Shown here in pieces: positions 9,714 to 37,717 of a DNA stretch of 64,000 bases. The notes beneath the pieces were generated by a model. It was not told where the DNA came from and did no database searches. It saw nothing but the letters and a program-made list of their open reading frames with translations. A program made the translations under genes and the position numbers. Source of the stretch: an uncultured Bacteroidales bacterium. Its GTDB lineage: Bacteria; Bacteroidota; Bacteroidia; Bacteroidales; UBA932. Location of the stretch: NCBI GenBank assembly GCA_947179325.1, contig CAMXAU010000014.1, positions 1,532-65,531 of the forward strand. The letters run 5' to 3'. How positions within the stretch are numbered: position 1 is the stretch's first letter; every line of letters starts with the position of its first letter.

Positions 9714-9733
9714 TTAATAAACACATGAATTAT

Positions 9734-12061: not shown

Positions 12062-12076
12062 TTATAATATGACATT

Positions 12077-19076: not shown

Positions 19077-19180
19077 GCAATTTAACCGGAATTCTGCACT
19101 GCTGCTGCAAGAAATGCCTGAAATATACACAGCATGTATCTCCTCAATAATCCCCCCACTAAAAAAAACAGAAAATAACC

Positions 19181-19256: not shown

Positions 19257-19628
19257 TATAGTCATCGGTTTGTATCCGGGGATGCCTGTGGACTTTATGT
19301 CGTGAAGGGCGAAGAGCTAATTGTGTCCAATGCTAAGTTTGAGGCTGAGGTTTCCGGTGAGGACATCAGATGGGTCCCTGCAGATGGAAGCATTGATATT
19401 GTCCATAATGAGGGCAATGTTTATTTCCTATATTATCCTCTCCATACTGTGAGGACGGCTATATGGATGGTAAGGCTGACAGGCGGTATGCCGCAAGCAG
19501 TGAACGATACAGGTATTTTTATCACTCTGGCTTTCATGGATAAGGACGTAATGGAGAAATGTCATTTATCCAACAGGCCCCCGCAATCGCCATTGTCCTT
19601 GCGGAACTTGTCCAGGTCAATCAGCATG

Positions 19629-19690
19629 ATTGAGACAATATTGCATGTTTTGAGACGAAAGTTTCAGGCTTCCGGAAATATATGTCATAA
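19629..19690 (+). promoter_or_regulatory. Conserved TGAGAY tandem motif, copy 1
   Basis: 19631-19667 is 33/38 identical to 21147-21184; followed by TGTCATAA and the -7 box TAATTTTG (19688-19695). Confidence 0.6.
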
Positions 19691-19730
19691 TTTTGCAGTC
19701 ACCAATAATATAGACACTAAAACATATCAG

Positions 19731-20174
19731 ATGAAAGGCAGTATCACATCAATAGGTGATGCCATACGGTGCAATAGGGCAGATATGGCCGTCTTGTGTC
19801 TCGTCGTACTGTATATCATATCAGCTGATGTGCATGGCAATATTGTATCTTGGGCTGTGCTTTCGGATGCTTTGCCTTATGTTCTGCTGTATGCTGTAGC
19901 CAGACTGTGCTTTTCCTTGTCCTACAGAAAGATGACGCTTTTAGTGTATGCCACTCTCTGTGTATGGACAATCTATGAATCGGTGCTGGGACTGACCCGG
20001 CTTTGGGGGATTACGGCGTCCGGACATGCAGGATTTCCTATGACAGGAACATTCTTTAATCCGGGACCTTTGGGAGGACTTGTCTCAATAGGTCTGGCGG
20101 CATCATTGGCCTATCTTTGCGGCCACAAGAAATTTATATCGGCAAAAATACCTTTTAAATGTCTATGCCGGTAA
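19731..20174 (+). pseudogene. Truncated O-antigen-ligase-like gene (N-terminal TM segment only)
   Basis: CVWTIYESVLGL...SGHAGFPMTGTFFNPGPLGG aligns with CIWGIYESALGL...SGHESFVLTGSFTNPGPYGG of 25369..27282 but stops after ~147 aa. Confidence 0.75.
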
Positions 20175-20249
20175 ATGAAAGGCGTCGCCCTATGTTGAGG
20201 ATGAAGATGGAAACAAAATAAAAACTGTCATATTTAAGAAAGGATAGCA

Positions 20250-21125
20250 ATGAATAATAGAAAGATCTATAGGATACTTGGTACTGTGGTGATGACAGTG
20301 GCAGCAATAGTGGTCCTTGCCGTTACAGTTCCGGTGTTCTTCTTTGACCAGTTCCTGATTGGCGGAAGTTCCATGGAGCCGACCTTGCATACCGGTGACC
20401 ATGTGCTTGTGAACAAACTGCTTCATGGAGCAAGAATCTACAGGACATATGATTTTTCTGTTCCTGAGATGGAATGTTTCCGTATGCCTGGCTTCAGGAA
20501 GGTGAGGCCTGGGGATATTGTCGTTTTTAACAATCCTGACGCCCATAAGGGCAAAGGGCTAAGTTTCAGGATAAATGATGTCTATGCCAAAAGATGCATA
20601 GGAAATCCTGGCGACACGGTGTCTGTGGTCAATGGCTTTTATTCCAATAGCAGCATTAAGGGGCCGATAGGTAACGTCATGAACCAGCAGGAATTGTCAG
20701 AAACGCCGGATTCTGTCTTGAATGGACATGGAGTGGTACTTAAGGCTGCCCAGTTTGCCGGACGTTATGGCAAGTGGACTATAAAGGATTTCGGACCGTT
20801 GAGGGTGCCGGCGAAAGGAGACATCGTAAAGTTGTCTTCCGGAAATGTCAGGCTATATAGTAAGATTATACGTTACGAGACCGGTATGGCTCCATCTGTA
20901 AAGGATGGTAAAGTGCTGTTTGGCGGTATCCCTGTTGATGAATACGAATTTACGCATGACTATTATTTTTTCGGGGGAGACAATGTTCTGGATTCGCGTG
21001 ACAGCCGTTATTTCGGCCTTGTTCCCGATGAATTCATAGTAGGAGTGGCAACCAGAGTGCTGTTTTCCCGTCCGGCAGCTACCGGCAAGACAGATCGGAG
21101 CAGATTCTGGAAAAAACTTCCCTGA
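20250..21125 (+). CDS. lepB: Signal peptidase I (S26), accessory long form
   Basis: N-terminal TM; catalytic Ser box GGSSMEPTL..GD; Lys box YAKRCIGNPGD; GDNVLDSRDSRYFG. Confidence 0.93.
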   Translation: MNNRKIYRILGTVVMTVAAIVVLAVTVPVFFFDQFLIGGSSMEPTLHTGDHVLVNKLLHGARIYRTYDFSVPEMECFRMPGFRKVRPGDIVVFNNPDAHKGKGLSFRINDVYAKRCIGNPGDTVSVVNGFYSNSSIKGPIGNVMNQQELSETPDSVLNGHGVVLKAAQFAGRYGKWTIKDFGPLRVPAKGDIVKLSSGNVRLYSKIIRYETGMAPSVKDGKVLFGGIPVDEYEFTHDYYFFGGDNVLDSRDSRYFGLVPDEFIVGVATRVLFSRPAATGKTDRSRFWKKLP

Positions 21126-21144
21126 CTTCAGTTATAACTGGTTG

Positions 21145-21196
21145 ACTGAGATAATATTACAAGTTTTTGAGACGAAAGTTGCAGTTTTTGTCATAA
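21145..21196 (+). promoter_or_regulatory. Conserved TGAGAY tandem motif, copy 2
   Basis: TGAGAT 21147, TGAGAC 21168, TGTCAT 21189: 21-bp period, upstream of the transglutaminase operon. Confidence 0.6.
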
Positions 21197-21217
21197 AAAC
21201 AATATTTCTTTGCAATA

Positions 21218-23260
21218 TTGATAACCTATACCATTTTGAGACCACATAAATTAATTGCCGTAACTATAACCTTATGTGCGTTATGTTTTTCCATGCTCAG
21301 CTGTTCTGGACCTGATAGCCGTCTTGAACAGGTGCTGGCACTTGCTGGAAGCAACCGTCCGGAACTTGAAAAAGTGCTGAGGAGATATTCATCTCCTGAA
21401 GACAGCCTGAAATACCGTGCCGCAGTTTTTCTTATTGAGAACATGCCGGGATACGGGTATTATGAAGGGACGCCCCTTGACAATTTTCTTGAATATTACC
21501 CTCTGCTGCGGAGTGTCAGACTCAAGAAGCAGTCTCCTGATGTTGCAGTGGATTCCATAAACAGGAAATACGGAAAATTTGACCTCTCCGCTCTGCATTA
21601 TAAAGAGGATATCCGTACAGTCGATTCCGCATATCTCTGCAGGAATATAGAATGGGCTTTCAGGGTGTGGGAGGAACAGCCTTGGGGCAGGAATGTAGGC
21701 TTTAGGGATTTCTGTGAATATATACTTCCTTATCGTGTCGGCAATGAGACTCTTGCAGACTGGAGGGAAATGTACTATGAAAAGTATAACGGCATACTTG
21801 ACGGTCTGCGCAATTCTGGCTGTTCTGACCGTGAGGATCCTGCGGCTGCAGCCCGTATTATAACAGACTCCCTTACCGGGCCTAAGAAGATATTCTTCAC
21901 AAGTGCGGCTCCCGCAGCCCTGCCCCATATAGGGCCTGTGGCAGCCGATTACCGTAGCGGCAGCTGCCGCGATTTGGTGGACTTTGCCCTCTATGTCTGC
22001 CGTGCCTTGGGAATACCGTGTGCATCTGACTACATGCCTTTCAGAGGGGACGGGAATGTTGGGCATGAATGGGCGGCTTTTCTCGGGCGTGACAGCCTCT
22101 ACTGTCAGGATATGGGAAACCCTATGGTCAATTCAAGTAAAATCAGTACTCTCCGTAAGTTGAAAGTGTATCGCCGGACATTCAGTATAAACAACAGGCT
22201 CAATGATGTGGATATACCTGATTCTGACAGGCCTGAATTCCTGAAAAGACCATGTTTCGAAGATGTGACGCCGGCCTATGCCATAGATTTCCTGAAGACG
22301 CTTAAAGTCCCTGTAACTGAACTCTACAGTGGACTCAAGCCGAAGACGGTCTGTCTGTGCATGAGCAGCCGCTTTTCATGGGTTCCGGTAGCTGTCGGAA
22401 AGTTCTGCCGGGGTAATGCGGAGTTTGAGGATATAGACTGCAATACTCAGGTTATGAGGGTGGCTTCTGTCAAGGACGGCAAGGTCATGTTCCTGAGTGA
22501 CCCGTTCTATGTAAAGGAATCCGGCGACCTGCATTTCTACCGTGCCGGCAAAGAACTTCGGGACATTACGGTGTTCCGTAAGTTTCCTGAGCTTCAAGAG
22601 TTGTGGCTTCAGAGGCGTATGCTTGGTGGCGTCTTTGAGGGAAGCAACAGTCCGGATTTCACAATGAAAGATACGCTTCATATTATTACAGAACTTCCTA
22701 AGCGCCTTCTTGTCCCGGCCCGACCCCGGAAATCCGGCCCTTATCGGTATGTGCGGTATTTCGGTCCGAGGAACGGCTTCTGTAACATTGCTGACATGTA
22801 TGTCTACGGAGCAGACGGGGAACTGCTGACCGGAAAGCCTATAGGTGTTCCTGGCAGCTATAGTGGTGACAATAAGTACGACTATTGGAGTGCATTGGAT
22901 GGAAACGGTGAGACTTCATTTGATTCACGCACATCGTATGGGGCATGGGTGGGGCTTGATTTGGGCAAGCCAAAAGAGATTGGCAGGATTGTCTACACAG
23001 CAAGGAATCGGGACAATCATGTGCGCCCTGGAGACGAGTACGAACTGTTCTATTGTGACGGGAACTGGAAGTCTGCCGGAAGGGTAACGGCATCATCTGA
23101 TTCGATTCTTTACAAAGGCATTCCCAAAGGGGCACTCTATATTCTTGATAATCTTACTCGTGGTACTCAGATAAGAGTATTTTCATACGATGAAGGTGTT
23201 CAGGAATGGTTAAGACCACGTCAACAAGAGAATTTAGCCATTCAAAATGGCAATATTTAA
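21218..23260 (+). CDS. Transglutaminase-like domain lipoprotein with C-terminal F5/8 type C (discoidin) domains
   Basis: Lipobox MLSC; FCEYILPYR, GSCRD (Cys), RALGIP, GHEW (His); discoidin-like ALDGN...WVGLDLGKPKEI. Confidence 0.82.
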   Translation: MITYTILRPHKLIAVTITLCALCFSMLSCSGPDSRLEQVLALAGSNRPELEKVLRRYSSPEDSLKYRAAVFLIENMPGYGYYEGTPLDNFLEYYPLLRSVRLKKQSPDVAVDSINRKYGKFDLSALHYKEDIRTVDSAYLCRNIEWAFRVWEEQPWGRNVGFRDFCEYILPYRVGNETLADWREMYYEKYNGILDGLRNSGCSDREDPAAAARIITDSLTGPKKIFFTSAAPAALPHIGPVAADYRSGSCRDLVDFALYVCRALGIPCASDYMPFRGDGNVGHEWAAFLGRDSLYCQDMGNPMVNSSKISTLRKLKVYRRTFSINNRLNDVDIPDSDRPEFLKRPCFEDVTPAYAIDFLKTLKVPVTELYSGLKPKTVCLCMSSRFSWVPVAVGKFCRGNAEFEDIDCNTQVMRVASVKDGKVMFLSDPFYVKESGDLHFYRAGKELRDITVFRKFPELQELWLQRRMLGGVFEGSNSPDFTMKDTLHIITELPKRLLVPARPRKSGPYRYVRYFGPRNGFCNIADMYVYGADGELLTGKPIGVPGSYSGDNKYDYWSALDGNGETSFDSRTSYGAWVGLDLGKPKEIGRIVYTARNRDNHVRPGDEYELFYCDGNWKSAGRVTASSDSILYKGIPKGALYILDNLTRGTQIRVFSYDEGVQEWLRPRQQENLAIQNGNI

Positions 23261-23288
23261 TATTGTTAACTTTAAAATTTATCTTATT

Positions 23289-23657
23289 ATGAGAAAATTT
23301 TTTGTTTTATTGGCAGGAATGGTTCTATTCCTTGCTTCCTCTTTAACTTTCATTTATGTGAAAGGAGAAAATGATTCTGTGAACGATTTACTGTCAGCAA
23401 ATGTAGATGCTTTGGCGGATAATGAATCAAGTGGAGGGCTTGATGCAAATTATCACCGGATTGACTCCAAGTGTGAAGTCTTTGTATCTGCAGGAATGCA
23501 AATCGATATCTTTGGAATAGGAATAATAACTGCCAAAGCTGATGGTAAAATTGCTATTGATGGAAAGGTTGTCTGTCAATCTAAAGGTAATGAGACATGC
23601 CGTCCTGTCGAATGCTCTGATCTGTATAGTGTCATATTGCATGGAGGAGAGCGATGA
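23289..23657 (+). CDS. NVEALA-family secreted Cys-rich peptide (122 aa; NVDALA variant)
   Basis: Basic N-terminus, hydrophobic helix, polar spacer, LLSANVDALA (aa 34-43), then 79 aa with C62, C96, C104, C109. ATG at 23289 within ORF 23247. Confidence 0.8.
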   Translation: MRKFFVLLAGMVLFLASSLTFIYVKGENDSVNDLLSANVDALADNESSGGLDANYHRIDSKCEVFVSAGMQIDIFGIGIITAKADGKIAIDGKVVCQSKGNETCRPVECSDLYSVILHGGER

Positions 23658-24778
23658 GAAAATTTCCATATTTTTCTTTTGTACTTAGTCTGGTTGTCAT
23701 ATCATGTGTCAGCCAGACCAAGAATGAACCTAATGTTCAGGGGATATCTGTTGACATAAACAAACAGGCTGATATCAGCGAGTTCGTATCCTCGTTTGAC
23801 GGTTATGTCTGTCTTGAAACATACGAAGAATGCCTTGTCAATGAAATCCGGAAACTGAAGATGGTTGGTGATACTATTTATGTTGCCGATGATACTAAGA
23901 TTACGATGTTCAGTCGCAGGGATGGTTCTTATCTCGGCAAGATTCATAAGCATGGCCGGGGGCCTGGAGAATACATTACATTAACTGATTTTGATGTATT
24001 TGACTCCAGATTGTATGTGTTGTCGAATGTAGATCGCGAGATTATTATGTACAATGCCTCCGGTGATGTTCTGAGAATTATCAATACCGGTGAAGGATTC
24101 AGCAACTTGTCGGTGATAGACGAAGACAATATCTGGCTTTATTCTTCTGACAGCAATGACAGTATGTACAACTTCATTCTGATTGGTCCGGATGCCGATG
24201 TGAAAGCAAAGTACGACAAATTTTCTAAGAATCAGAGTTATACAATTGAAGACATTACATTCTGCGGTTCTGTTTCGGATACGTTGTATGTCTCCCAATA
24301 TTATGACAACATCGTGTATTCCTTGCATTATGACGGTTATGTTCCGTTATACCGTTTTGATATGAACCTCCGGAACACTGTGTCTCAGGAGGAGCTGTCG
24401 GCAACACCTTTAAGTGAACTGCACAAGACTTATAAATATAAGGAATCATTTCGTAGTATAATGCATATTGACAGAAACAGGCACACGTTATTTGCTGAAA
24501 CATGGTGCTTTCTTGACGGTCTGGCATTGAAGACCTGTTTTGTCAAAGCCGACATGGTGACCGGAAAATCTCATTTTTATATCTGCGGTTACGATGTTGA
24601 TGAGCGATTCCCATTGTTTGATCTATCTGACGTGATAGGGTACGACGGTAAGGTATTGATTTCATATCTTACTGCATTCTCAGCTAAAAAACATGGGAAA
24701 AAATATAAGATAGGCAATCTCGCTGACATATCCGAATACGACAATCCAGTCATCGTCTTTCACACTTTAAATTATTAA
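23654..24778 (+). CDS. 6-bladed beta-propeller lipoprotein, copy 1
   Basis: Lipobox VISC; LET..ECLV..I, GRGPGEY motif, C-terminal DNPVIVF; 4-nt overlap with the peptide gene. Confidence 0.85.
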   Translation: MRKFPYFSFVLSLVVISCVSQTKNEPNVQGISVDINKQADISEFVSSFDGYVCLETYEECLVNEIRKLKMVGDTIYVADDTKITMFSRRDGSYLGKIHKHGRGPGEYITLTDFDVFDSRLYVLSNVDREIIMYNASGDVLRIINTGEGFSNLSVIDEDNIWLYSSDSNDSMYNFILIGPDADVKAKYDKFSKNQSYTIEDITFCGSVSDTLYVSQYYDNIVYSLHYDGYVPLYRFDMNLRNTVSQEELSATPLSELHKTYKYKESFRSIMHIDRNRHTLFAETWCFLDGLALKTCFVKADMVTGKSHFYICGYDVDERFPLFDLSDVIGYDGKVLISYLTAFSAKKHGKKYKIGNLADISEYDNPVIVFHTLNY

Positions 24779-24781
24779 GCG

Positions 24782-25363
24782 GTGAACAGGTATCTATTCG
24801 GAATCCTTATTATGTTATCGTCTTTGTCGGTTTCTTGCTCGAACAGCCAAAATGATATGAAAGATGCTATTGTGGCATTTCGTCAGAAGCAGATAATATT
24901 ACCGGAAGAACTTGTCAAAGTGGAAAACAGGAATATATCGAAGAGTATATTGGAGCAGGCTGAGGTAAAGATGGTCATTTACTATGACTCTTTGGAGTGC
25001 AGCTCCTGTAAAGTCTCCCATCTGAAAGAGATGCAATATCTTTATGAACTTTCTGACAAGTTACCTATGTTAGAGGTTTATACGATTTTTTCTCCCTTGC
25101 AGCAGGAATATGACCAGACTATGGTAGATCTGATGATGTTAAATTTCCCATATCCGATATATGTAGACAATACTTGTTCTTTTGAAAAGAATAATCCTGA
25201 TTTTCCTGAAGACAAACGCTTTCATAGTTTTCTTTTGGATAAAACCGGACATCCGGTTTTTGTCGGTAACCCGACAGCAAGCGATAAGCTTTGGGACCTG
25301 TTCCTGAAAGTTATGGATAACCTTCAGGAAAATGATGGAGTCTATATAGATGTTTTGAAATAA
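24782..25363 (+). CDS. Thioredoxin-like lipoprotein with CxxC
   Basis: Lipobox SVSC; YYDSLECSSC; FLLDK...VFVGNP; GTG start. Confidence 0.7.
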   Translation: MNRYLFGILIMLSSLSVSCSNSQNDMKDAIVAFRQKQIILPEELVKVENRNISKSILEQAEVKMVIYYDSLECSSCKVSHLKEMQYLYELSDKLPMLEVYTIFSPLQQEYDQTMVDLMMLNFPYPIYVDNTCSFEKNNPDFPEDKRFHSFLLDKTGHPVFVGNPTASDKLWDLFLKVMDNLQENDGVYIDVLK

Positions 25364-25368
25364 ACGCT

Positions 25369-27282
25369 TTGAGACAATTTAAAAACATAATTCTATTGAT
25401 TGTATGGACGGTTGCGGCTGTTGCAATTGTCCATACAATTATTCTCGTGTCTAAGCCTGTAGAATTAATGCATTATACTACTGCAGGCCTATTGGTGTGT
25501 GCTACATCTCTGTTTATACCGACTATAATAATATTAGTGGTAGAACAGAAAGTTATACAATGGAACATAGTGGATATAGTTCTCGTCTGTCTGGTGATTC
25601 TTTATTGTATATCAGCATCAGTGAATAATCAACGTATTTCAATCTTTTGGATGCAGGAATTCTTTCCGTATGCTATCATGTATATATCCTTTAAGGTTCT
25701 TTTCGGCATAAAGAAAAGATTGGTAAGCTGGTTTGTATTTATCATATTTTGTATTTGGGGAATTTATGAAAGTGCTTTAGGATTGGGACAGATTTTCGGC
25801 AGTGTACCTTCTGGACATGAATCTTTTGTATTGACAGGCAGTTTTACTAATCCGGGACCATACGGAGGATTTATAGCTTTTCTTATGACTGTTTTGGTCG
25901 GATACTTGATTGAATATGGGAAATGTGTCAATGTTATATGTCGGCCTGTTATTGACGGGATGCGTACTATTGGATTAAAACGATTAACCAGTAGCCGCTA
26001 TGCCGCATGGTGTATATTCAGGTTATTGCCTATAATTTTAGCTGCTATTGCTGTGATTTTATGCATTGTAGTGTTTCCTGCCTCAATGAGCCGTGCTGGT
26101 TGGTTGGCATTTGCTTGTGGCTTAATGCTTTGTCTTATACGTGAAACAGGAATTATCAAGTCTGTATTAAGTCATAAAGCAATATCTGCCATTATGTTGA
26201 TTACCATATTGTCTGCTGTCGCGACGATATTCATGATGAAGAAAGATTCAGCAATCGGAAGATTCCATATCTGGAATATGGAGGCAAAGGCAATAATTGA
26301 AACTCCGTTTATCGGTACTGGACCAGGTGCTGTTCTTGGGCAATACGCAAAGATTCAAGAAAATTATTTTAAGGAAAACGAGTGTTCACAAAAAACTGTA
26401 AATGTTGCAGGTGCACCATCGTATGCATTCAACGAATATCTTAAAATAGGTATGGAGACAGGAATTGCAGGCACATTACTGGCTTTATGTGTCGTTGTTC
26501 TTGCAATTATACAGCTTTTACGCTCGAATGATATATTCGGTTATGGGCTTGTAGCAATAGCGGTTTTTGCATTTTTTTCTTATCCTTTAAGTGTAGCACA
26601 GTTTTCTATATGTATAGTTGCAATGCTTGCATTGTCAAGTTGCCATGATTCTGAAGTGCTTAAGTTACAAAAGAAAAAGAATACATATGTATTGTGCAAT
26701 TCATTGTTGACGATTTTTGTCATTGGTCTTGTGCTATTTGGAATAACTGATTTATATAAAGTTTATAAATCACGGGAAAAGGCATCTGATGATTGGCGGA
26801 TGGCAAGGCAATGGACTCTTATGAAAAAATATGATTGTGCTGCAGAAGAACTTGAGACATTATATCCGTACCTATTCTGGAGTTATCAGTATCTTTACGA
26901 ATATGGATACGCTTTGCATAGGGCTGGTATGTATGAAAAAAGCAATGTAATCTTTACTGAAGGCACTTTGATATCCGCAGATCCAATGTTTCATAACATG
27001 ATAGGGAAAAATTATATGGAAATGGGTTCTTATGATTATGCGGAAAAGGAGTTAATTAAGTCGCATTATACTGTTCCATGTCGTCTATATCCATTGGTCT
27101 TGCTTATGGAAATGTATATGGACATCAATTTGACAGAAAAGGCTAAAGAAGTAGGTGATAAAGTCTTGAATATGAAGATAAATAAAAAGAATGGAACTAT
27201 GATAGAACTTAGAAGGCGTGCAGAAGAATGTTTAAAGATTTTGAAACATGATGTTAATGAAATTAATGGCATTTCCAATTGA
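25369..27282 (+). CDS. O-antigen-ligase-like (Wzy_C) polytopic membrane protein with C-terminal TPR
   Basis: Many TM helices; SRAGWLA, DSAIGRFHIW, PFIGTGPG, AFNEYL; TPR-like YEYGYAL...NMIGKNY...AEKEL. Confidence 0.85.
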   Translation: MRQFKNIILLIVWTVAAVAIVHTIILVSKPVELMHYTTAGLLVCATSLFIPTIIILVVEQKVIQWNIVDIVLVCLVILYCISASVNNQRISIFWMQEFFPYAIMYISFKVLFGIKKRLVSWFVFIIFCIWGIYESALGLGQIFGSVPSGHESFVLTGSFTNPGPYGGFIAFLMTVLVGYLIEYGKCVNVICRPVIDGMRTIGLKRLTSSRYAAWCIFRLLPIILAAIAVILCIVVFPASMSRAGWLAFACGLMLCLIRETGIIKSVLSHKAISAIMLITILSAVATIFMMKKDSAIGRFHIWNMEAKAIIETPFIGTGPGAVLGQYAKIQENYFKENECSQKTVNVAGAPSYAFNEYLKIGMETGIAGTLLALCVVVLAIIQLLRSNDIFGYGLVAIAVFAFFSYPLSVAQFSICIVAMLALSSCHDSEVLKLQKKKNTYVLCNSLLTIFVIGLVLFGITDLYKVYKSREKASDDWRMARQWTLMKKYDCAAEELETLYPYLFWSYQYLYEYGYALHRAGMYEKSNVIFTEGTLISADPMFHNMIGKNYMEMGSYDYAEKELIKSHYTVPCRLYPLVLLMEMYMDINLTEKAKEVGDKVLNMKINKKNGTMIELRRRAEECLKILKHDVNEINGISN

Positions 27283-27465
27283 GACGAATACGAACTGTTC
27301 TATTGCGATGGTAACTGGAAATCGGCCGGCACTCTCTATATCCTGAACAATCTTACGCGCGGTAAAGACATAAGAGTGTTTTCCTGCGATGAAGGTGTGC
27401 AGGAATGGGACCGTCCGAAACGTAAAGAAAATCTACCATTGTATTATGATATTATTCATATTTAA
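27283..27465 (+). pseudogene. 3' remnant of a second transglutaminase-discoidin gene
   Basis: DEYELFYCDGNWKSAG-TLYILNNLTRGKDIRVFSCDEGVQEW versus DEYELFYCDGNWKSAG[17 aa]ALYILDNLTRGTQIRVFSYDEGVQEW at the end of 21218..23260. Confidence 0.9.
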
Positions 27466-27477
27466 ACTAAGTGAACA

Positions 27478-28605: not shown

Positions 28606-28608
28606 GCG

Positions 28609-28671
28609 ATGAACAAGTATATATTTGGAATACTTATTCTGTTTTACTGTGGGGTGTTGTGCACATGGTAG
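28609..28671 (+). pseudogene. 5' stub of a second thioredoxin-like gene
   Basis: MNKYIFGILILF versus MNRYLFGILIML, at the same 3-nt spacing after the propeller stop; homology ends after ~11 codons. Confidence 0.7.
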
Positions 28672-28808
28672 TTTGCGAACAGAAAAGACTCAATCATCAC
28701 TGGTTAGTGCATATGACTGTCCTTACTTTGGCCGTGGGCGATTGTGATAAGATTGCATACGGTGCCAATTCAAACTGATTTAAGGGTAATGCGTTGATAT
28801 ATAATATT

Positions 28809-30317: not shown

Positions 30318-30321
30318 TAGG

Positions 30322-31407
30322 ATGGCTATGGATATTTATAGAACAATGATTGTTTCCGTTGCTGCATTTTCAGTAGCTTATGGATGTGGAGTCAAGGGTG
30401 GAAATGACGGAGGACGTGACGGAAGGCTCCAGTATACTCCTGAGGTGAATAAGGTGGAGGTCATGGAACTGAAGCGGTGCAGTTTCATGAGACAGCTGAC
30501 CGCCAATGGCAAGCTTGTCGCTGCAGGAAAGAGCTCCCTGTCGTTCAACACTTCCGGTACGGTGTCTGAGCTATATGTCAGCAATGGCCAGTCTGTCAGG
30601 GCTGGAGATGTGCTTGCCGAGCTGGAGCAGCGTGAGAAGAAGCTTGCATTGGAGGCGGCGGGCATTTCCCTGGAGAAGGCAGAGATAGATTTTTATGACG
30701 TTCTTGCCGGGCAGGGCTATCAGGCCAGGGATACGGCATCTGTTCCTAAGGATATCCTTGATATGGCAAAGATGCGTTCCGGCTACAGGTCAGCATTGAA
30801 CAGCTATCAGAGGGCGGCCATAGATTTTGAACGGACAGTGCTCAAGGCCCCTTTTGCCGGCAAAGTGGCTGACGTGAAGTTCAGGAAATATGACAATGTG
30901 TCTTCCGGGGCCTTCTGTATGCTGATTGACGACAGTATGCTTGATGTGGACTTCTCCGTCCTGGAGTCTGAATATAGCTTTGTAAAGGAAGGCCTTACGG
31001 TGTCTGTCGCTCCTTTCACCGGAGCCGGTGTGGCTCTGGAGGGGCATGTTACGGAAATAAACCCGACAGTGGACAAGTATGGGCTTGTGGCTGTGAGGGC
31101 ACGTGTCAGGAATGACGGCAGCCTTATTGACGGTATGAATGTGAGTGTGACGGTCTGCAGGGATGTCCCGGATGTGTTGGTGGTCCCTAAAAGTGCAGTG
31201 GTGATAAGGGATAATCTGGATGTGCTGTTCAGATATAAGGACGGAAAGGCAATGTGGACATATGTCCATGTGCTTATGTCCAACAGTGCCAGCCATGTGG
31301 TGACGGCAAATACGGACCGTGGGGCGGAGCTGAATGAAGGTGACATGGTCATTGTATCCGGAAACCTTAATCTCGGTGACGGCTCGTCCGTAGAAATCGT
31401 AGACTGA
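30322..31407 (+). CDS. RND periplasmic adaptor (membrane fusion protein)
   Basis: Lipoyl half motifs G.VSELYV.NGQ.V.AGD and LKAPFAGKV; LVVPKSAV. Confidence 0.92.
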   Translation: MAMDIYRTMIVSVAAFSVAYGCGVKGGNDGGRDGRLQYTPEVNKVEVMELKRCSFMRQLTANGKLVAAGKSSLSFNTSGTVSELYVSNGQSVRAGDVLAELEQREKKLALEAAGISLEKAEIDFYDVLAGQGYQARDTASVPKDILDMAKMRSGYRSALNSYQRAAIDFERTVLKAPFAGKVADVKFRKYDNVSSGAFCMLIDDSMLDVDFSVLESEYSFVKEGLTVSVAPFTGAGVALEGHVTEINPTVDKYGLVAVRARVRNDGSLIDGMNVSVTVCRDVPDVLVVPKSAVVIRDNLDVLFRYKDGKAMWTYVHVLMSNSASHVVTANTDRGAELNEGDMVIVSGNLNLGDGSSVEIVD

Positions 31408-31409
31408 CT

Positions 31410-34400
31410 ATGCTGAACAGACTGATAGACCGCCCTATAAGTGTCACGATGGTCCTCCTCGTGGTGCTTGTGCTTGGAATCACAGCAATCCGTCTTCTCC
31501 CTGTGTCCCTGATTCCTGATGTGGATGTGCCTTATATTACGGTTCAGGTGACAGCTCCGGACCTTTCCGCGCGGGAGATAGACGAGACCATCCTCAAGCC
31601 GCTCAGGCAGCAGCTTGTGCAGGTCGGTTCTCTTGAAGATGTAAGGAGCGAGGCTAAAGACGGAAGCGGTACCGTTGCCCTGACCTTCTCTCAAGGTGCT
31701 GACATGGATTATCTCTTTATCGAGGTCAACGAGAAAATTGACAGGTGCATGTCATCGTTCCGGGATGTGGAGAGGCCGAAAGTCCTCAAGTCCGGTGCTG
31801 CTGATATTCCGGCTTTCTATGTCAACATCACCCTCCGGGATGAAACGGTCCTGCCGGATGAGACTGATAGGGGACTGTTTCCGGTGTCCCAGTCGTTTCT
31901 TGACATGAGTTGTTTCGCTTCAGATGTAGTGGCCAAGAGGATTGAGCAGCTTAAGGAGGTCGCAATGGTTGACCTGAGCGGTGGTGTGCGTCCGGAGCTT
32001 CTGATTATCCCTGACAGGGATGCGCTGAAGAGATTGGGCATGACGGAGTCTGGTTTTGAGAATGTAGTCAAGGCTGCCGATATCCGCCTTGGCAGTCTGA
32101 CTATAAGGGACGGGGAGTACCGCTATAATGTGAAGTTCCGCTCTTTTGCTTCAGACAGGTCCGATATAGAGGACCTTTATCTGGAAGTTGGCGGTAAGGT
32201 GATGCAGGTCAAGGATATTGCCCGTGTGATAGAGCATCCTTCCAAGAGGACAGGGCTGGTGATGTCCGACGGCAGGGATGCTGTGACCATGGCAGTGATA
32301 AAGCAGAGCAGCGCCAGGATGGCAGAACTGAAGAAGGCTATGAACAGTCTGATGAAGCAGTTCCGCCGTGACTATCCTGAAATGGAGTTTACCGTGACGC
32401 GTGACCAGACAGAGCTTCTGGAATATTCCATTGACAATCTGATTCAGAATATAGTAGTGGGTATCCTGCTGGCCTGTCTGATAATTTTCCTTTTCATGAA
32501 GGATTTCAGGTCTCCTATGCTGGTGGTTTTCACCATTCCTGCCGCACTGGTGTTCTCGATGCTTGTCTTCTACGTGATAGGATTGACCATCAATATCATA
32601 TCACTTTCCGGCCTTGTGCTTGGAGTGGGAATGATGGTGGACAATACCATAGTGCTTATAGACAATATCACGGCACGGTGGCAGAGGGGAGAACAGCTGC
32701 GCCGTGCAGTTGTGAAAGGTACATCGGAAGTGCTTGCTCCTATGCTGAGTTCCATGCTCACTACATGTGCAGTATTCATCCCGCTGATTTTTATGAGCGG
32801 TATAGCCGGAGCCATGTTCTATGACCAGGCTATGGCAATAACAGTGGTGCTTGCCACATCGTATGTGGTGACTGTGACTGTCGTGCCTGTATATTACTGG
32901 TGGTGGTACCACAGATCCGATGCTTTTGTGCCGAACCGCTTTCTTGAACGGCTGTCTTCCGGGAAGGGTGTACTTATGTATGAAAAGGGTGTGGAATGGC
33001 TCGTGAGGCGAAGATTGGTCTGCTGGGGAGTCCTTGCGGTGTCGGTTGCCGGCATCATCGTGTGTTTTTCATATATGCCCAAGGAGAAGCTTCCCGAAGT
33101 TACCTACACGGACACTTTGTTGAAAATCAACTGGAACAGCCAGCTTGCGCTTGACAGGAATACAGAGCGTGTCAGACGTCTGGACTCTTTGGCGAAAGGC
33201 TACTCCATGCAGTCCACTGCGCTTGTGGGGATGCAGCAGTTTGTCCTCGGCCATAGCGGGGACCAGTCTGTTTCAGAGACTACGGTCTATCTTAAGGCTC
33301 ACGATGCCCATAGCCTTGGCAGGCTTAAGGATGAGATTTCTACATTTCTTATGAAGGAATATCCCGACTGCATATATTCCTTTGAGTCTTCGGGCAATAT
33401 TTTCGACATGGTCTTTTCCGAAAAGGAACCTGAACTTCTTGCGCGTTTCCGTCCTGTGTCTCTTCCGGAGCTTGATGTGGAGTCCATTCAGGGGCTGACT
33501 TCAGACCTTGCACGTAGTCTTCCATATCTGCATATACCTCCGGTCCCTCTCAAGACAGATGTCCTGTATGTCGCAGATCCTCAGGTGATGGCGCTTTACG
33601 GTGTGTCATACTCCCAGCTTGCAGGGGTTCTGAAGAATGCCCTCAATGAGAACCGTCTGTTCAATATTGTCCAGGGGGACAGGACATTGCCTGTAGTCAT
33701 GGGTGTTGACACAAGGGAGATGGACGATATTGTCCGGAACACCTTCCTGTATCGTGACGGTGCCGGACTGCCGGTGAGTGCTTTTATGAAGCAGACATAC
33801 GAAGAGGACCTCAAGAGTATAGTTTCCGGGGTGGAGGGCAGCTACTATCCTCTTCCGCTTGACCTCCCTGACAGCGATGTCTCCAGTGTCATGGATGACA
33901 TCCGCGAAGTGACATACAGGAACGGGAATTTCGATGTAAGCTTTACTGGGTCATATTTCAGCAGCAGGAAGATGGTCAGGGAACTTGCTCTTGTGCTTAT
34001 TGTGGCTGTAGTCCTTCTTTACCTCATACTTGCCTCTCAGTTCGAGTCCCTTGTCCAGCCTCTGATAATCCTGTCAGAAATTGTGATAGACATTTTTGTC
34101 TCACTTGCCGTGCTCTGGCTCTGTGGCGCATCCGTCAATCTCATGTCAATGATAGGCCTTGTGGTCGTGTGTGGCATCGTCATCAATGATTCCATCCTTA
34201 AGATTGACACCATCAACAGGCTGCGGCGTTCCGGAACGGGACTCTACCATGCCATTCTTCTCGGGGGGCAAAGAAGGCTGAAGGCTATAGTCATGACTTC
34301 ATTGACTACAATCCTTGCGGTATGTCCGTTTCTTGTCCGGGGTAATATGGGGGCGGACCTCCAGTATCCTATGTCACTTGTCATCATTGCGGGAATGATA

Positions 34401-34469
34401 ACAGGTACTGCTGTCAGTCTCTTCTTTGTGCCGATTGTCTATTATGAAATATACAGGAAGAGGAAATGA
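31410..34469 (+). CDS. RND transporter permease, subunit 1
   Basis: LIDRPISV start, LPVSLIPDVD, GMMVDNTIV, LASQFES, RRLKAIVMTSLTT. Confidence 0.92.
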   Translation: MLNRLIDRPISVTMVLLVVLVLGITAIRLLPVSLIPDVDVPYITVQVTAPDLSAREIDETILKPLRQQLVQVGSLEDVRSEAKDGSGTVALTFSQGADMDYLFIEVNEKIDRCMSSFRDVERPKVLKSGAADIPAFYVNITLRDETVLPDETDRGLFPVSQSFLDMSCFASDVVAKRIEQLKEVAMVDLSGGVRPELLIIPDRDALKRLGMTESGFENVVKAADIRLGSLTIRDGEYRYNVKFRSFASDRSDIEDLYLEVGGKVMQVKDIARVIEHPSKRTGLVMSDGRDAVTMAVIKQSSARMAELKKAMNSLMKQFRRDYPEMEFTVTRDQTELLEYSIDNLIQNIVVGILLACLIIFLFMKDFRSPMLVVFTIPAALVFSMLVFYVIGLTINIISLSGLVLGVGMMVDNTIVLIDNITARWQRGEQLRRAVVKGTSEVLAPMLSSMLTTCAVFIPLIFMSGIAGAMFYDQAMAITVVLATSYVVTVTVVPVYYWWWYHRSDAFVPNRFLERLSSGKGVLMYEKGVEWLVRRRLVCWGVLAVSVAGIIVCFSYMPKEKLPEVTYTDTLLKINWNSQLALDRNTERVRRLDSLAKGYSMQSTALVGMQQFVLGHSGDQSVSETTVYLKAHDAHSLGRLKDEISTFLMKEYPDCIYSFESSGNIFDMVFSEKEPELLARFRPVSLPELDVESIQGLTSDLARSLPYLHIPPVPLKTDVLYVADPQVMALYGVSYSQLAGVLKNALNENRLFNIVQGDRTLPVVMGVDTREMDDIVRNTFLYRDGAGLPVSAFMKQTYEEDLKSIVSGVEGSYYPLPLDLPDSDVSSVMDDIREVTYRNGNFDVSFTGSYFSSRKMVRELALVLIVAVVLLYLILASQFESLVQPLIILSEIVIDIFVSLAVLWLCGASVNLMSMIGLVVVCGIVINDSILKIDTINRLRRSGTGLYHAILLGGQRRLKAIVMTSLTTILAVCPFLVRGNMGADLQYPMSLVIIAGMITGTAVSLFFVPIVYYEIYRKRK

Positions 34470-37400
34470 AAGTGAACAGCGGCATAAGGATTCCTTCGTT
34501 TTCGGTCCTGCTCATCACTGCGGTGATTGCGGTGCTTGGCATTGCATCTGTACCAATGCTCAATGTCCGCTACACTCCGGAACAGGCCGGGAATACAATC
34601 AGCGTCTCGTTTTCGTGGAACGGTGTCTCCGCAAGGATAATGGAGGCGGAGGTTACATCCAGGATTGAGGGTGTGCTTTCCGGTATCAGGGACAACAGCG
34701 GTGTCAGTTCCACATCTGACCGCGGAAAGGGAAGCGTACGGGTCAAGTTCAGGAAAGGTACGGATATGGCTGCCGCCCGTTTTGAGGTGGCGTCACGTAT
34801 CAGGAACATATATCCAAAGCTTCCGGAAGGTGTCAGCTATCCGGCCATTTCTCTTGGTACAAGAGGGACAGGGGGCACTACGGCGGTGACATTTGTCCTG
34901 AAGGCGGACATTCCCTCCAAGGAGATAGAGAAATTTGTGACTGCAAGGCTGATGACACCGTTGTCACGTATAGATGGTGTGGAGAAAGTCTCTTTCTGGG
35001 GGGCATCGCCTTTCGAATGGGTGGTGACCTTCGACATGCACAAGGCCGATGCTGTAGGGGTGGATGCAGATGCCATAGCTTCTGCGTTCAACTACTGGTT
35101 TGGTGCAGAGATGATAGGGATGGCAAGTACGGATGACGGGATGGTGAGTGTAAAGCTTGCATGCATGTCGGGTGAGGACTTCGGTGATATTCCGATTGTC
35201 AACAGAAACGGCAGGATTGTGTATCTGAGGGAAATTGCTGATTTCCGCTATCAGGAGTCGCTGCCGAGTTCATATCACAGGATCAACGGTCTGAACACCA
35301 TAAACCTTTCCGTGTCAGTGGAACCGGAGACCAACCTTCTGCGGATGTCGTCTGAAATAAGGTCGACGATGAGCGGGCTGGAGGCGTCTTTTCCGGAAGA
35401 GATAACAGTATCTGTCAGTCATGATGCATCAGAATACATTGCAAAGGAGCTTGACAGGATATATTTCAGGACTTTTCTGTGTCTCCTTGTCCTTCTTGTA
35501 TTTGTGTTCCTTGTCAGCCGCTCCTGGCGATACCTGTTCGTGATAGCCCTTACCCTTGTCGCGGACATACTCGCGGCGATAGTGCTCTATAACCTGCTTG
35601 ACATAACCGTGCATATCTATACGCTTGCCGGAATAACAGTCTCCCTCGGTATCATGATAGATACAGCGATAGTGATGGCGGACCATTATTCATACTGCCG
35701 GAACCGTTCAGTCTTTCCTGCTCTTCTCGGTGCGACGGGCACTACGGTGGGTGCGCTTTGCGTAATACTTCTTCTCCCGGAGCAGGACAGGAAGAACCTC
35801 ACTGACTTTGCATGGATCATCATGGTCAACCTGTCAGTTTCCTTGATTACTGCATATCTCTTCATTCCTTCGCTGATAGACAGATATCCGTTAAGGAGAT
35901 CGGCGTACAGCCTTTCTCTGAAAAGGCGCAGGAGAATAATCAGGTGGAACAGACGGTATCAGGCTTTCATAGAGGCATGCCTTCGCCGCAGATGGGTGTT
36001 GGCCGTTGTACTTGTGGCTTCTTTCGGCATTCCTACCTGCCTTCTGCCCGAGAAGCTCGGTTCCAGAAACCCTGACCGGATGCAGAAGGTCTACAATGGG
36101 ATTATGGGGTGGCCTCCGTATGCCGACAACCGGAAAGATGTTGACGGGATTCTCGGCACTTCGTTCGCCATGTTCAGCAAGGCTATGGACCGTTCTGACT
36201 TTTATCGTGAGCCGGGACGCCAGTCCCTGCAGATAGATGCAGCAATGCCTGAGGGATGTACGGTCGGCCAGCTCAACGAAGTGGTCAGGAGCATGGAGAA
36301 CTATCTCTGCAAGTTCGGGCAGATTGAAATGTTCACTACGGATGTCAAAAGTTATGACAACGCATCCATCTCCGTCAGCTTCAGGCCGGAATATGAAAAT
36401 ACCTCCTTTCCAGCGGAACTCAAGTCCCAGGTGATATCAATGGCAAACAATTTCGGCGGGGCCACATGGCGGGTCTATGGGGTGAACAACAATTATTTCA
36501 GCAATAATGTCCGTTCTGATTATAAGTCATATACAATCTCGCTTAAAGGGTACAATTATGATGAACTTGTCAGCTATGCTGACACTCTGATGGATATCCT
36601 TTCAGTTAACCGGCGAGTGTCCGAACTGGAGTTTGTAACTCCTTCCGGACGGCTTCCGGTCAATGAGTACAACATGGAATATGATTTCGGGAAAATGTCG
36701 GTATCCGGAGTAAATCCTTATAGATACTACCAGAAGCTGTCTACAGTTCTGTATCAGCGTAACCTTGTTTCAGTGGTGGAGGACGGGGAGATGACGTCCG
36801 TGGTCCTGAAATCTTCAGAGTCGGAGAATTTTGACTATTGGCATGTCGTGAACTCGCAGGTTAGGGTAGATTCCACATATGCGAGGCTGTCTGAACTCGG
36901 GTCGGTGGAGAAAAGAAGGACCGGCTTCCCGATAGTGAGGAACAACCAGTCCTACGAGGTGAAGGTGGGATTCAACTTCATAGGTTCTTATGAACTTTCC
37001 AATTCTTTGATAAGCAAGACTGTAAAATATATGAATGATGAAGTCCTTCCTGTTGGCTATAAGGCGTCTTCACGTGGATGGGGAGTATGGTCTCAGGAAA
37101 AGAAAGGCAAATATGGAAAGCTGATTCTGCTTGTGGCGGCAATAATCTTTGTGATGTGCGCTACGGTCTTCAATTCTTTGAGGCTTCCTTTTGCTGTTAT
37201 TCTCATGATACCCGTGTCTTTCATCGGGGTTTTCCTTGCGTTCGGGCTGTCGGACTTCACTTTTGATCAGGGTGGCTTTGCGGCTTTTGTCATGTTGAGC
37301 GGAGTGGTGGTCAATGCGGGGATCTATCTTGTGGACACTTTCCGGAAAGACAGGAGCGGACGTAGTGATGTAAGGAGATATATCAGGGCATTCAATCATA

Positions 37401-37600
37401 AGATAAACCCGATTATGCTTACTGTCATTTCCACAGTCCTTGGTCTGCTTCCGTTCCTTTCGGATGGCCCGGAGGAGGTGTTCTGGTTTGCATTTGCGGT
37501 GGGCACCATTTCCGGAATGCTGTTTTCTCTCATTGCCCTTGTGGTCTATCTTCCGGTCTTCTGCCTTGCCAGGCCCTCGGGAAAAGGCAAACGTGGATAA
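34466..37600 (+). CDS. RND transporter permease, subunit 2
   Basis: AcrB-like topology, GIMIDTAIV, PIMLTVIST; 4-nt overlap with subunit 1. Confidence 0.9.
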   Translation: MKVNSGIRIPSFSVLLITAVIAVLGIASVPMLNVRYTPEQAGNTISVSFSWNGVSARIMEAEVTSRIEGVLSGIRDNSGVSSTSDRGKGSVRVKFRKGTDMAAARFEVASRIRNIYPKLPEGVSYPAISLGTRGTGGTTAVTFVLKADIPSKEIEKFVTARLMTPLSRIDGVEKVSFWGASPFEWVVTFDMHKADAVGVDADAIASAFNYWFGAEMIGMASTDDGMVSVKLACMSGEDFGDIPIVNRNGRIVYLREIADFRYQESLPSSYHRINGLNTINLSVSVEPETNLLRMSSEIRSTMSGLEASFPEEITVSVSHDASEYIAKELDRIYFRTFLCLLVLLVFVFLVSRSWRYLFVIALTLVADILAAIVLYNLLDITVHIYTLAGITVSLGIMIDTAIVMADHYSYCRNRSVFPALLGATGTTVGALCVILLLPEQDRKNLTDFAWIIMVNLSVSLITAYLFIPSLIDRYPLRRSAYSLSLKRRRRIIRWNRRYQAFIEACLRRRWVLAVVLVASFGIPTCLLPEKLGSRNPDRMQKVYNGIMGWPPYADNRKDVDGILGTSFAMFSKAMDRSDFYREPGRQSLQIDAAMPEGCTVGQLNEVVRSMENYLCKFGQIEMFTTDVKSYDNASISVSFRPEYENTSFPAELKSQVISMANNFGGATWRVYGVNNNYFSNNVRSDYKSYTISLKGYNYDELVSYADTLMDILSVNRRVSELEFVTPSGRLPVNEYNMEYDFGKMSVSGVNPYRYYQKLSTVLYQRNLVSVVEDGEMTSVVLKSSESENFDYWHVVNSQVRVDSTYARLSELGSVEKRRTGFPIVRNNQSYEVKVGFNFIGSYELSNSLISKTVKYMNDEVLPVGYKASSRGWGVWSQEKKGKYGKLILLVAAIIFVMCATVFNSLRLPFAVILMIPVSFIGVFLAFGLSDFTFDQGGFAAFVMLSGVVVNAGIYLVDTFRKDRSGRSDVRRYIRAFNHKINPIMLTVISTVLGLLPFLSDGPEEVFWFAFAVGTISGMLFSLIALVVYLPVFCLARPSGKGKRG

Positions 37601-37645
37601 TATGATGAATTGAGACAGGATTACATATTTATGCACCGGATTTCA

Positions 37646-37697
37646 TCTGCGTGCAGGGCTTCATGAACCATTTGAGCCCTGCACGCAGAATTTTTTT
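37646..37697 (+). terminator. Intrinsic terminator after the RND operon
   Basis: 15-bp stem TCTGCGTGCAGGGCT / AGCCCTGCACGCAGA followed by ATTTTTTT. Confidence 0.88.
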
Positions 37698-37717
37698 AAT
37701 AAAGTTTGTAAATATGT

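Follow-up and report, generated by a model that had tools for sequence, protein, structure and literature searches.

The 64,000-nucleotide stretch of an uncultured mouse-gut Bacteroidales bacterium analyzed here (the window; GenBank assembly GCA_947179325.1, contig CAMXAU010000014.1, positions 1,532 to 65,531) contains a compact gene island at approximately 19.2-37.7 kb, in which a small cysteine-rich protein of the NVEALA type and its β-propeller lipoprotein are encoded together with a signal peptidase, a thioredoxin-like lipoprotein and a tripartite efflux pump. All substantial genes of this interval are read from the + strand, and the junctions between them are short or overlapping. The initial annotation had described the genes between 19731 and 37600 as co-directional and tightly spaced, which is correct for all of them, and the series is closed by a strong terminator. 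Its intact members are an S26 type I signal peptidase of 291 residues (20250-21125), a 680-residue transglutaminase/papain-like lipoprotein (21218-23260), the 122-residue NVEALA-family precursor (23289-23657), a six-bladed DUF5128/DUF4934 β-propeller lipoprotein (propeller 1; 23654-24778), a CxxC lipoprotein of 193 residues with a predicted thioredoxin fold (24782-25363), a polytopic Wzy_C (O-antigen-ligase-like) protein with a TPR-like C-terminal tail (25369-27282), an orphan DUF5128 propeller lipoprotein (propeller 2; 27478-28605), a TolC-type outer-membrane efflux protein (OEP; 28794-30317), a periplasmic adaptor lipoprotein of the membrane fusion type (MFP; 30322-31407), and two resistance-nodulation-division (RND) permeases, RND1 (31410-34469) and RND2 (34466-37600).

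Co-occurrence of these genes was tested from three independent anchors, namely the CxxC lipoprotein, the pump adaptor and the signal peptidase, and all three led to one and the same set of genes, in shuffled order, on divergent contigs of Bacteroidales (GC 39-63%). The CxxC lipoprotein has 59 detectable homologues at 35-56% identity. Three distant contexts of this protein (loci L008/L009, L010/L011 and L012/L013) contain arrays in which a protein of 70-93 residues is followed by a TolB_like or DUF5128 propeller; beside these arrays stand the CxxC gene, OEP, MFP and RND permeases of ~1019 and ~1042 residues, and L008 and L010 additionally carry Wzy_C and S26. As compared to the window, the pump proteins of these distant loci are 55-65% identical, S26 47-50%, Wzy 36-41%, and the propellers ~25%. 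One locus holds an array of up to ~six different peptide-propeller pairs. A metagenome scan with an alignment of the adaptor, in which open reading frames (ORFs) were classed by jackhmmer profiles and flanks were limited to 10 kb, returned 80 loci. Among the 33 pump-adaptor loci with at least 6 kb of upstream sequence, S26 was present in 31, a propeller in 27 and Wzy in 21, while the transglutaminase-like protein was found in 17, the thioredoxin-like CxxC protein in 14 and a recognisable NVEALA protein in 12. Three S26 homologues of 46-48% identity, located on contigs of 43-63% GC, all adjoin Wzy_C and a pump, in the orders OEP-MFP-R1-R2-Wzy-S26, Wzy-S26-OEP-MFP-R1-R2 and R1-R2-Wzy-x-S26-OEP, where R1 and R2 are the two permeases. 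In L010, L016 and L053, the pump operon itself encloses an NVEALA gene and a propeller gene, placed between OEP and MFP. That linkage is kept while gene order is shuffled argues for selection on the neighbourhood. The linkage is not due to chance, and the genes constitute a conserved functional neighbourhood across divergent Bacteroidales; co-occurrence across Bacteroidota was a check named in the initial annotation. A search of the literature on NVEALA, DUF5128, DUF4934, PF14055, PF17170, PF15869, PF16288 and BF3164 found no functional account of these families and no description of the system, so the conserved island is apparently undescribed.

In the NVEALA-type protein, residues 1-24 form a signal anchor, residues 38-43 read NVDALA, and cysteines stand at positions 62, 96, 104 and 109. 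Its assignment to the Pfam family NVEALA (PF14055) in the initial annotation stands only in part. Its own score of 24.0-24.6 bits, with a motif that reads NVDALA, is below the gathering cut-off of 27, but 56 of 65 aligned long-core relatives match PF14055 (best 1.2e-12), and by this transitive homology the protein can be classed as a divergent member. Its layout is also of the PF14055 type, consisting of an N-terminal hydrophobic segment followed by the motif in a small protein. Removal of the leader would leave 72-79 residues (7.8-8.4 kDa), making the product a small protein rather than a peptide in the strict sense. A cut after A-L-A would yield D44-R122 (~8,399 Da with two disulfides), and a cut after GG would yield L51-R122 (~7,753 Da). 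Only nine close homologues were found by a word-based search, and a scan of species-representative genomes with the peptide profile gave a single locus, in a Bacteroidales metagenome-assembled genome, so the long-core subclass appears to be rare among the representatives. A profile search of 1.8 billion representatives, by comparison, recovered 157 clusters at 50% identity, which fall into two classes. The long class (105-130 residues), to which the window protein belongs, aligns over its full length, and C62, C96, C104 and C109 are invariant in 65 relatives. The short class (62-100 residues) has cysteine-rich cores of 25-45 residues that cannot be aligned and that resemble the Escherichia coli enterotoxin STII. 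Both classes begin with a Lys-rich N-terminus and ~20 hydrophobic residues, followed by a polar stretch ending in L-F-x-A-N-V-E-A-L-[A/S/T]-x-x-E. Across 159 distinct sequences the information content is highest at this motif and drops to background within ~4 residues beyond the Glu. NVEALA-family cores contain 6.2% cysteine, and exactly four cysteines are present in 60% of them. A RiPP-like pathway had been proposed in the initial annotation, and the arrangement seen in the 159 sequences, a conserved signal and leader ahead of a variable, cysteine-rich core, agrees with it; this layout classifies the protein, as judged from sequence, as a putative precursor of the ribosomally synthesized and post-translationally modified peptide (RiPP) type.

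Type I signal peptidases prefer small residues at positions -3 and -1, and because A-L-[A/S/T] fits this rule, the NVEALA motif is a plausible cut site for the island S26. AlphaFold2 modeled the 122-residue protein with a mean predicted local distance difference test (pLDDT) score of 74.6 as a transmembrane helix, a second helix bearing the motif, four strands and a C-terminal helix. The model of the peptide core gave no significant match to PDB folds (best E = 1.1), and NCBIfam contained no model matching the peptide, either propeller or the CxxC protein. In a separate observation, 15 stretches of P0175, a 4,136-residue protein sorted by the type IX secretion system (Por_Secre_tail, NHL, PKD), match the peptide-core profile, and these stretches appear to overlap an InlB-B-repeat-like (Flg_new_2) array. 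Homology between the core and this array is not claimed, since relatives of the window peptide have no match to that Pfam family. A weak match to Pepco in two of the 65 relatives led to a preprint on an antiviral effector, which proved unrelated. Mouse-gut metatranscriptome contigs (runs X33 and X38; window positions 21500-24300) match the genes for the transglutaminase-like protein, the NVEALA protein and the propeller at 90-95% identity, weakly suggesting that related alleles are transcribed in vivo, with DNA carry-over as a possible source.

Each peptide appears to have a propeller of its own. In the window, the stop of the NVEALA gene overlaps the start of propeller 1 by 4 nt (23654-23657), and a propeller gene comes next after an NVEALA gene in 19 of 21 informative cases, usually within a few bases and often with overlapping stop and start codons. 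Propeller 1 (Pfam 4.1e-27) carries the lipobox VISC and matches PDB entry 4RAA (5.4e-7), and propeller 2 (Pfam 1.5e-29) is 68% identical to it. Across 63 propellers the median identity to that of the window is 17%, and the only residues kept are the lipobox cysteine and a GxGPxE motif. At loci where no NVEALA motif was found, propellers are still preceded by ORFs encoding a signal peptide and a cysteine-rich protein with 6-8 cysteines (L031 at 1472-1720 and 3367-3690; L020 at 3288 and 6474), one of which contains a degenerate motif, LFRTNVRAEAGG. Because these NVEALA-less propellers also follow cysteine-rich ORFs with signal peptides, the peptide-propeller unit would be broader than Pfam NVEALA, and the robust unit, as read from the sequences, appears to be a secreted cysteine-rich protein with a private propeller.

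The initial annotation had listed a private signal peptidase and a CxxC lipoprotein, and both are upheld. S26 (Pfam 2.5e-28, TIGR02227 3e-26) scores 99.6 bits against PF10502 (cut-off 22.9) and 92.2 bits against TIGR02227 (cut-off 47), has one N-terminal transmembrane helix, and carries the catalytic boxes SMEPT, KRC..PGD and GDN..S.DSR, which are conserved among its homologues. The CxxC lipoprotein has no Pfam, NCBIfam or PDB match at the sequence level. Its AlphaFold2 model (pLDDT 89.6) has a thioredoxin fold, and the best Foldseek matches are the thioredoxin-like PG_2175, the DipZ C-terminal domain, TlpA, DsbE, peroxiredoxins and the thioredoxin domain of NHLRC2, with a probability of 1.0 for PG_2175, the DipZ C-terminal domain, TlpA and DsbE. 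C73-S-S-C76 is invariant in 46 homologues. On the strength of the modeled fold and the CxxC motif, the protein can be assigned to the TlpA/DsbE/ResA-like group.

The 680-residue lipoprotein (lipobox MLSC) had been called a transglutaminase-discoidin protein. Both Pfam matches behind this name are sub-threshold (F5/8-type-C, 26.8 bits with a cut-off of 28.2; transglutaminase core, 17 bits with a cut-off of 23), while at least 90% of the 25 homologues (27-99% identity) retain Cys250 and His283, and a carbohydrate-binding-module-like segment matches PDB entry 2yb7 (2.8e-13). Given the Cys/His pair and the carbohydrate-binding-like domains, the protein looks at least as much like a hydrolase as a cross-linker. 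It is also missing from several loci, and the isopeptide cross-linking that had been proposed for it is left without support. The S26, thioredoxin-like and transglutaminase-like proteins all look intact by their conserved catalytic residues. The Wzy_C protein (Pfam 1.3e-18) scores 67.7 bits against PF04932 (cut-off 31.7) and has a weak LcrH/SycD TPR match; its homologues also bear TPR matches, and conserved residues are found both in the membrane part and in the TPR-like tail.

OEP (Pfam OEP 6.5e-31), the adaptor (TIGR01730 RND_mfp 3e-42, 144.7 bits with a cut-off of 94.9) and the RND permeases (Pfam ACR_tran 1e-146 for RND1 and 2.2e-99 for RND2) together make up a tripartite RND pump. The two permeases are 22% identical to each other, and the tandem pair is kept in related loci that reach through the pump, which suggests a heteromeric pump. 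Neither permease comes near the cut-off of any named NCBIfam RND subfamily model, the best equivalogs including MdtB and MdtC, and the two may represent a distinct RND clade. Searches for RND proton-relay motifs found nothing. The presumed fourth transmembrane helix of each permease contains a single Asp (VDNTIV and IDTAIV). At this position AcrB has an Asp-Asp pair.

Comparison of the window with its closest relatives indicates that the peptide genes and their surroundings have been reassorted. The cassette from the peptide to Wzy has a GC content of 0.34-0.41, as compared to 0.45-0.53 in the flanks. Locus L001, which is from the same organism at ~99% identity, contains a second NVEALA gene, 71% identical to the first, ahead of propeller 2; in the window this gene and the first 80 nt of propeller 2 are replaced, leaving the propeller an orphan. 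The second module is a decayed duplicate, with a fragment of a transglutaminase-like gene at its start and a CxxC stub at its end. The former, the 3'-end remnant at 27217-27441 (direct repeats D4 and D5), matches residues 584-675 of the 680-residue protein with 50% identity by tblastn. The latter, at 28609-28671, comprises the first 20 codons of a second CxxC lipoprotein gene, recognized by reading the sequence and by direct repeat D3 (24702-24816 versus 28529-28643, 84%). Between the window and L003 the pump is 97-98% identical, as compared to 72% for the peptide, 60-68% for the propellers, 80% for the thioredoxin-like CxxC protein and 88% for Wzy. Between the window and L007, from another species, the cassette is ~88% identical while S26 and MFP are only 76% identical. 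Because identities differ between the cassette and its surroundings in both comparisons, the cassette would move independently of its flanks, and its sequence is that of a horizontally exchanged unit. Within the peptide gene, the synonymous divergence (dS) between the window and L003 jumps from 0.11 in the leader to 1.29 in the core, so that a recombination breakpoint can be located where the leader meets the core. The ratio of nonsynonymous to synonymous divergence (dN/dS) is ~0.3 in leader and core alike, so that both are constrained. Mouse-gut contigs from runs X4 and X5 (27287/28821 junction) lack propeller 2, with Wzy followed directly by OEP as in L003, and run X6 joins 28581 back to 24755, revealing alleles with the modules in another order.

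The island as a whole also seems to move horizontally. It is flanked by a pair of direct repeats of ~85-155 bp, the left at 19160-19256 and the right at 37697-37852, with 19160-19256 matching 37697-37764 and 37823-37852 at 92.7% and 96.7% identity (direct repeats D6-D8 of the repeat search, and blastn). The right copy corresponds to the promoter and 5' end, both intact, of a metallophosphoesterase gene starting at 37806; the left copy is a degenerate duplicate of the same sequence with a 58-bp internal deletion. By this reading of the repeats, insertion of the 18.5-kb island looks to have hit the metallophosphoesterase gene at its promoter and 5' end, and the whole seems to be a mobile accessory island. 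At loci L010/L011 (~800-5300), the system lies directly downstream of the conjugative-transposon genes TraM and DUF4138, which suggests carriage on an integrative conjugative element. A single metagenome contig from run X4 joins 19698 to 37609, skipping 17,910 bases, with 22 bases on its shorter side; this weak evidence could be the empty-site form without the island.

The left end of the island contains what is probably debris. The ATG at 19731 opens the last 148 codons of an ORF spanning 19218-20174, and the segment from 19731 to 20174 (+ strand) is 36% identical by tblastn to residues 61-185 of the Wzy_C-TPR protein, with no Pfam match. Because of this identity to the full-length protein downstream, it is read as a truncated N-terminal Wzy_C copy and is probably a gene remnant. 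The first 171 codons of the ORF (19218-19730) have no family match and start in the left direct repeat, and a frameshift splits the L001 counterpart of the region into two ORFs; 19218-19730 is probably non-functional insertion debris. At the right end, an intrinsic terminator at 37646-37697 (+ strand; a ~17-bp GC-rich hairpin followed by a U-run, -32.2 kcal/mol, z = -8.4) follows RND2, and a promoter and terminator scan found none comparable within the cluster. Counts in the scan for sigma-70-type promoters and terminators were near chance, and a scan of the window for the Bacteroides -7 motif gave nothing decisive. PADLOC models of anti-phage defence matched none of the eight cluster proteins tested. 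On one side the island adjoins a gene for a hybrid two-component regulator, and on the other genes for a metallophosphoesterase, GH20 and GH109. The regulator was considered as a member of the system and rejected, as it is unlinked to the cluster in other loci. Positions 1-14221 and 37806-60527 of the window hold long co-directional genes of polysaccharide-utilisation type, the Pfam check covering the genes named here, and upstream of the island are ORFs of 1055 and 571 residues that are SusC- and SusD-like in size.

Taken together, the divergent pairing, the polymorphism, the orphan propellers and the inserted island point to a toxin/immunity-like polymorphic system, as opposed to a single tailored product. 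We give about an even chance to the reading that the locus encodes a polymorphic, periplasm-matured secreted peptide system with cognate propellers and pump-mediated release, acting on competing bacteria. From the gene families, the modeled thioredoxin fold, the catalytic residues, the pairing, the linkage and the recombination we infer the following route. Sec would insert the NVEALA-type precursor through its N-terminal signal anchor, and the island S26 would free the core, likely by cutting within the NVEALA motif at A-L-[A/S/T], which is almost invariant. The thioredoxin-fold CxxC lipoprotein would then form or shuffle the two disulfides of a four-cysteine core. Weakest in the scheme is the next step, in which Wzy_C-TPR and the transglutaminase-like lipoprotein may attach, trim or check a modification; some loci lack their genes. 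The propeller encoded just downstream would bind its own peptide, most likely as an immunity partner or a holding chaperone. Finally, OEP, MFP and the RND pair would carry the product out of the periplasm and through the outer membrane; the product most likely serves competition between related bacteria.

Several points weigh against this reading. The chief difficulty is size, since a window core of 72-79 residues would have to pass through an RND pump, and we know of no RND substrate as large as 7.8-8.4 kDa. A propeller of 370 residues is also large for an immunity protein. The NVEALA motif lies ~14-20 residues past the membrane anchor, farther than is usual for a type I signal peptidase site, and a housekeeping signal peptidase could make the cut, with the private S26 having another substrate. 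The hydropathy scan did not fix the membrane side on which the Wzy_C TPR tail lies, and no positive selection was detected in the peptide core (dN/dS ~0.3, window versus L003). A recognisable NVEALA protein was detected in just 12 of the 33 pump-anchored loci, in a scan with incomplete detection and 10-kb flanks. Clustering at 90% identity reduces the 80 adaptor loci to nine clusters, one of which, from a common human-gut organism, contains 60 of the loci, so that the independent lineages number about a dozen, not eighty.

A stronger version of the same reading is that these loci form a Bacteroidales-wide toxin class in which S26 cuts at NVEALA, the thioredoxin-like protein makes the disulfides, Wzy_C-TPR decorates the product, a heteromeric RND pump secretes a folded product of 3-8 kDa and the propeller confers immunity. 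We consider it possible but unlikely. If true, a fully extracytoplasmic, RND-dependent pathway with propeller immunity would come close to a new category, and the propeller would be a new kind of immunity protein.

Of the readings that dispense with antagonism, the one that survives best makes the peptide and the propeller the two subunits of a stable complex outside the cytoplasm that has a function of its own. The complex could capture ligands at the surface, or be an enzyme with cross-links or a peptide-derived cofactor in its small cysteine-rich subunit, and the pump would then carry a small-molecule product or substrate. Methylamine dehydrogenase (mau) offers a model, with its small disulfide-rich subunit bearing a long leader, its propeller large subunit and its thioredoxin-like MauD. 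The tight coupling of peptide and propeller genes, the thioredoxin-like accessory and the purifying selection on the core (dN/dS ~0.3) all agree with such a complex; the GxGPxE motif, whose invariant Glu is found in all propellers, could be a shared active or binding site, and small molecules are the normal cargo of RND pumps. The mau cluster, however, encodes one conserved enzyme with a haem protein (MauG), a tryptophan-derived cofactor and a seven-bladed propeller, and it has no arrays, no pump and no dedicated signal peptidase. Here the propellers diverge to a median identity of 17% and the cores cannot be aligned between classes, which is extreme and would be unusual for a conserved enzyme. 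Propellers occur without peptides, alleles are swapped within a species, no MauG-type haem protein or radical-SAM enzyme is found among the Pfam and NCBIfam matches of the cluster, and the dedicated signal peptidase is left without a clear role. A two-subunit complex is for these reasons improbable.

Another alternative is signalling, in which the peptides would be secreted quorum or kin-recognition pheromones, the propellers their receptors or binding proteins, and the pump and peptidase the production machinery. The leader-core layout is that of exported peptides, the cognate pairs and strain-specific alleles are reminiscent of pherotypes, and in the window a hybrid two-component regulator adjoins the island. 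That adjacency is not kept, however: the hybrid two-component gene is unlinked in L007, L008, L010, L012 and L094-L096, no regulator is conserved within the cluster, and the window island looks inserted into a neighbour's promoter and 5' end with polysaccharide-utilisation-type genes on both sides. Arrays of ~six pairs and orphan propellers also fit antagonism and immunity better, and we see only a slim prospect for a signalling role.

An equally slim prospect attaches to the proposal that S26, Wzy_C-TPR and the pump make up an envelope-maintenance or resistance module, handling a lipid-linked glycan or foreign peptides, beside which peptide-propeller cassettes merely accumulate without using the pump. 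It draws on the constancy of the S26-Wzy-pump core, the most constant part of the neighbourhood, on the 10 kb shown of L094 and L096, in which there is no peptide or propeller, on the 12 of 33 pump loci with a detected NVEALA protein, and on the Wzy_C family, which normally acts on undecaprenyl-linked glycans. Against it, peptide-propeller pairs sit inside the pump operon (OEP/MFP) in three lineages, propellers are found in 27 of 33 pump loci, and the CxxC anchor always recovered the pump. Cassette and pump are also not separated by a strong terminator in the window, where the single one detected comes after RND2. Fortuitous adjacency of a small ORF that is not a real gene, which the window protein's score just under the Pfam NVEALA cut-off and its nine close homologues by word-based search might have suggested, is effectively refuted by the co-occurrence and selection data, namely the 157 clusters at 50% identity with four invariant cysteines in the long class, the dN/dS of ~0.3 that indicates selection on the coding sequence, and the linkage reproduced from three anchors, with weak additional support from metatranscriptome contigs covering related peptide alleles.

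Returning to a secreted antagonistic peptide, a precedent for the proposed route exists in the E. coli enterotoxin STII (STb), which is exported by Sec, processed by type I signal peptidase, given its disulfides in the periplasm by DsbA and released through MacAB-TolC (PMC5985334). The proposed route shares with it a Sec-dependent pre-peptide, disulfide formation in the periplasm and expulsion from there by a tripartite TolC-type pump, and the route, which the initial annotation had set apart from classical RiPPs, is thus not without precedent. The two differ in that the STII pump is built on the MacB ABC transporter and the island has an RND permease pair, and STII relies on the housekeeping LepB and DsbA whereas the island encodes its own enzymes. 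STII is 48 residues long, as compared to 72-79 for the window core, with the short class being shorter. The island further has a leader motif, a propeller partner, Wzy_C, a transglutaminase-like protein and polymorphic arrays, none of which belong to STII.

With bacteroidetocins and other class II bacteriocins the island shares a conserved leader, a variable and often disulfide-bonded core, accessory strain-variable loci, an adjacent gene that is protective in the bacteriocins, and a dedicated exporter. Double-glycine bacteriocin leaders have no Sec signal and are processed by a C39 peptidase-ABC exporter, whereas the island precursor has a signal anchor and an S26 peptidase, and no C39 or ABC gene is found among the island's family assignments. 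Glycocins such as sublancin, to which the initial annotation had likened the cluster, are also cysteine-rich ribosomal peptides encoded with thiol-disulfide oxidoreductases and an exporter. They use a cytoplasmic GT2-type S/O-glycosyltransferase and a SunT-type ABC exporter, while the only glycan-handling candidate of the island is Wzy_C; no cluster protein matches a GT2 glycosyltransferase or a peptidase-containing ABC exporter, and without a glycocin-type glycosyltransferase in the cluster the analogy falls. Of the RiPP-like pathway as first proposed, the system and its precursor logic are retained, while the cross-linking and the glycosylation lack support and the route has a forerunner in STII. 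What that annotation did not contain is the private, divergent propeller of each peptide, the within-species polymorphism with leader/core recombination, and the insertion of the island.

The genetics are similar to those of polymorphic toxin loci. Contact-dependent inhibition modules (CDI; cdiA-CT/cdiI) and Rhs loci likewise combine a conserved N-terminus with swapped C-terminal parts and a breakpoint at the boundary, a cognate partner directly downstream, duplicate modules that include a fragment of the upstream gene, and orphan partners. CDI and Rhs toxins are large, contact-dependent proteins of type V and VI systems, whereas the island unit is a small, Sec-exported, cysteine-rich protein with a 370-residue propeller partner. 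Two further systems are similar in single components. SipW-TasA/TapA of Bacillus subtilis also has a second, operon-encoded S26 peptidase for specific exported substrates, but it serves a Gram-positive biofilm matrix, its substrates are large fibre proteins, and it has no pump or oxidoreductase. MdtABC-TolC also has two different tandem RND permease genes with one adaptor; the island permeases score 264 bits against MdtB/MdtC cut-offs of 1774, the island operon includes the OEP gene, and the surrounding genes are wholly different. By analogy, the route resembles that of STII, the genetics those of polymorphic toxin loci and the leader-core logic that of bacteriocins and RiPPs.

Gut Bacteroidales compete by secreted toxins, of which, to our knowledge, only a handful of families have been described. 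Loci of the type reported here occur in gut metagenomes of both mouse and human origin, and a single cluster of adaptors comprises 4,519 sequences. Should the peptides prove antagonistic, roles would be explained for several large uncharacterised families, namely NVEALA, the DUF5128, DUF4934 and TolB_like propellers and an unnamed family of thioredoxin-like lipoproteins, a new secretion task would be added to those of RND pumps, and the loci would amount to an extensive natural collection of disulfide-rich peptides and their matching binding proteins. Even with another function, a small cysteine-rich protein with a private propeller, encoded beside a private signal peptidase, would constitute a clear and testable module.

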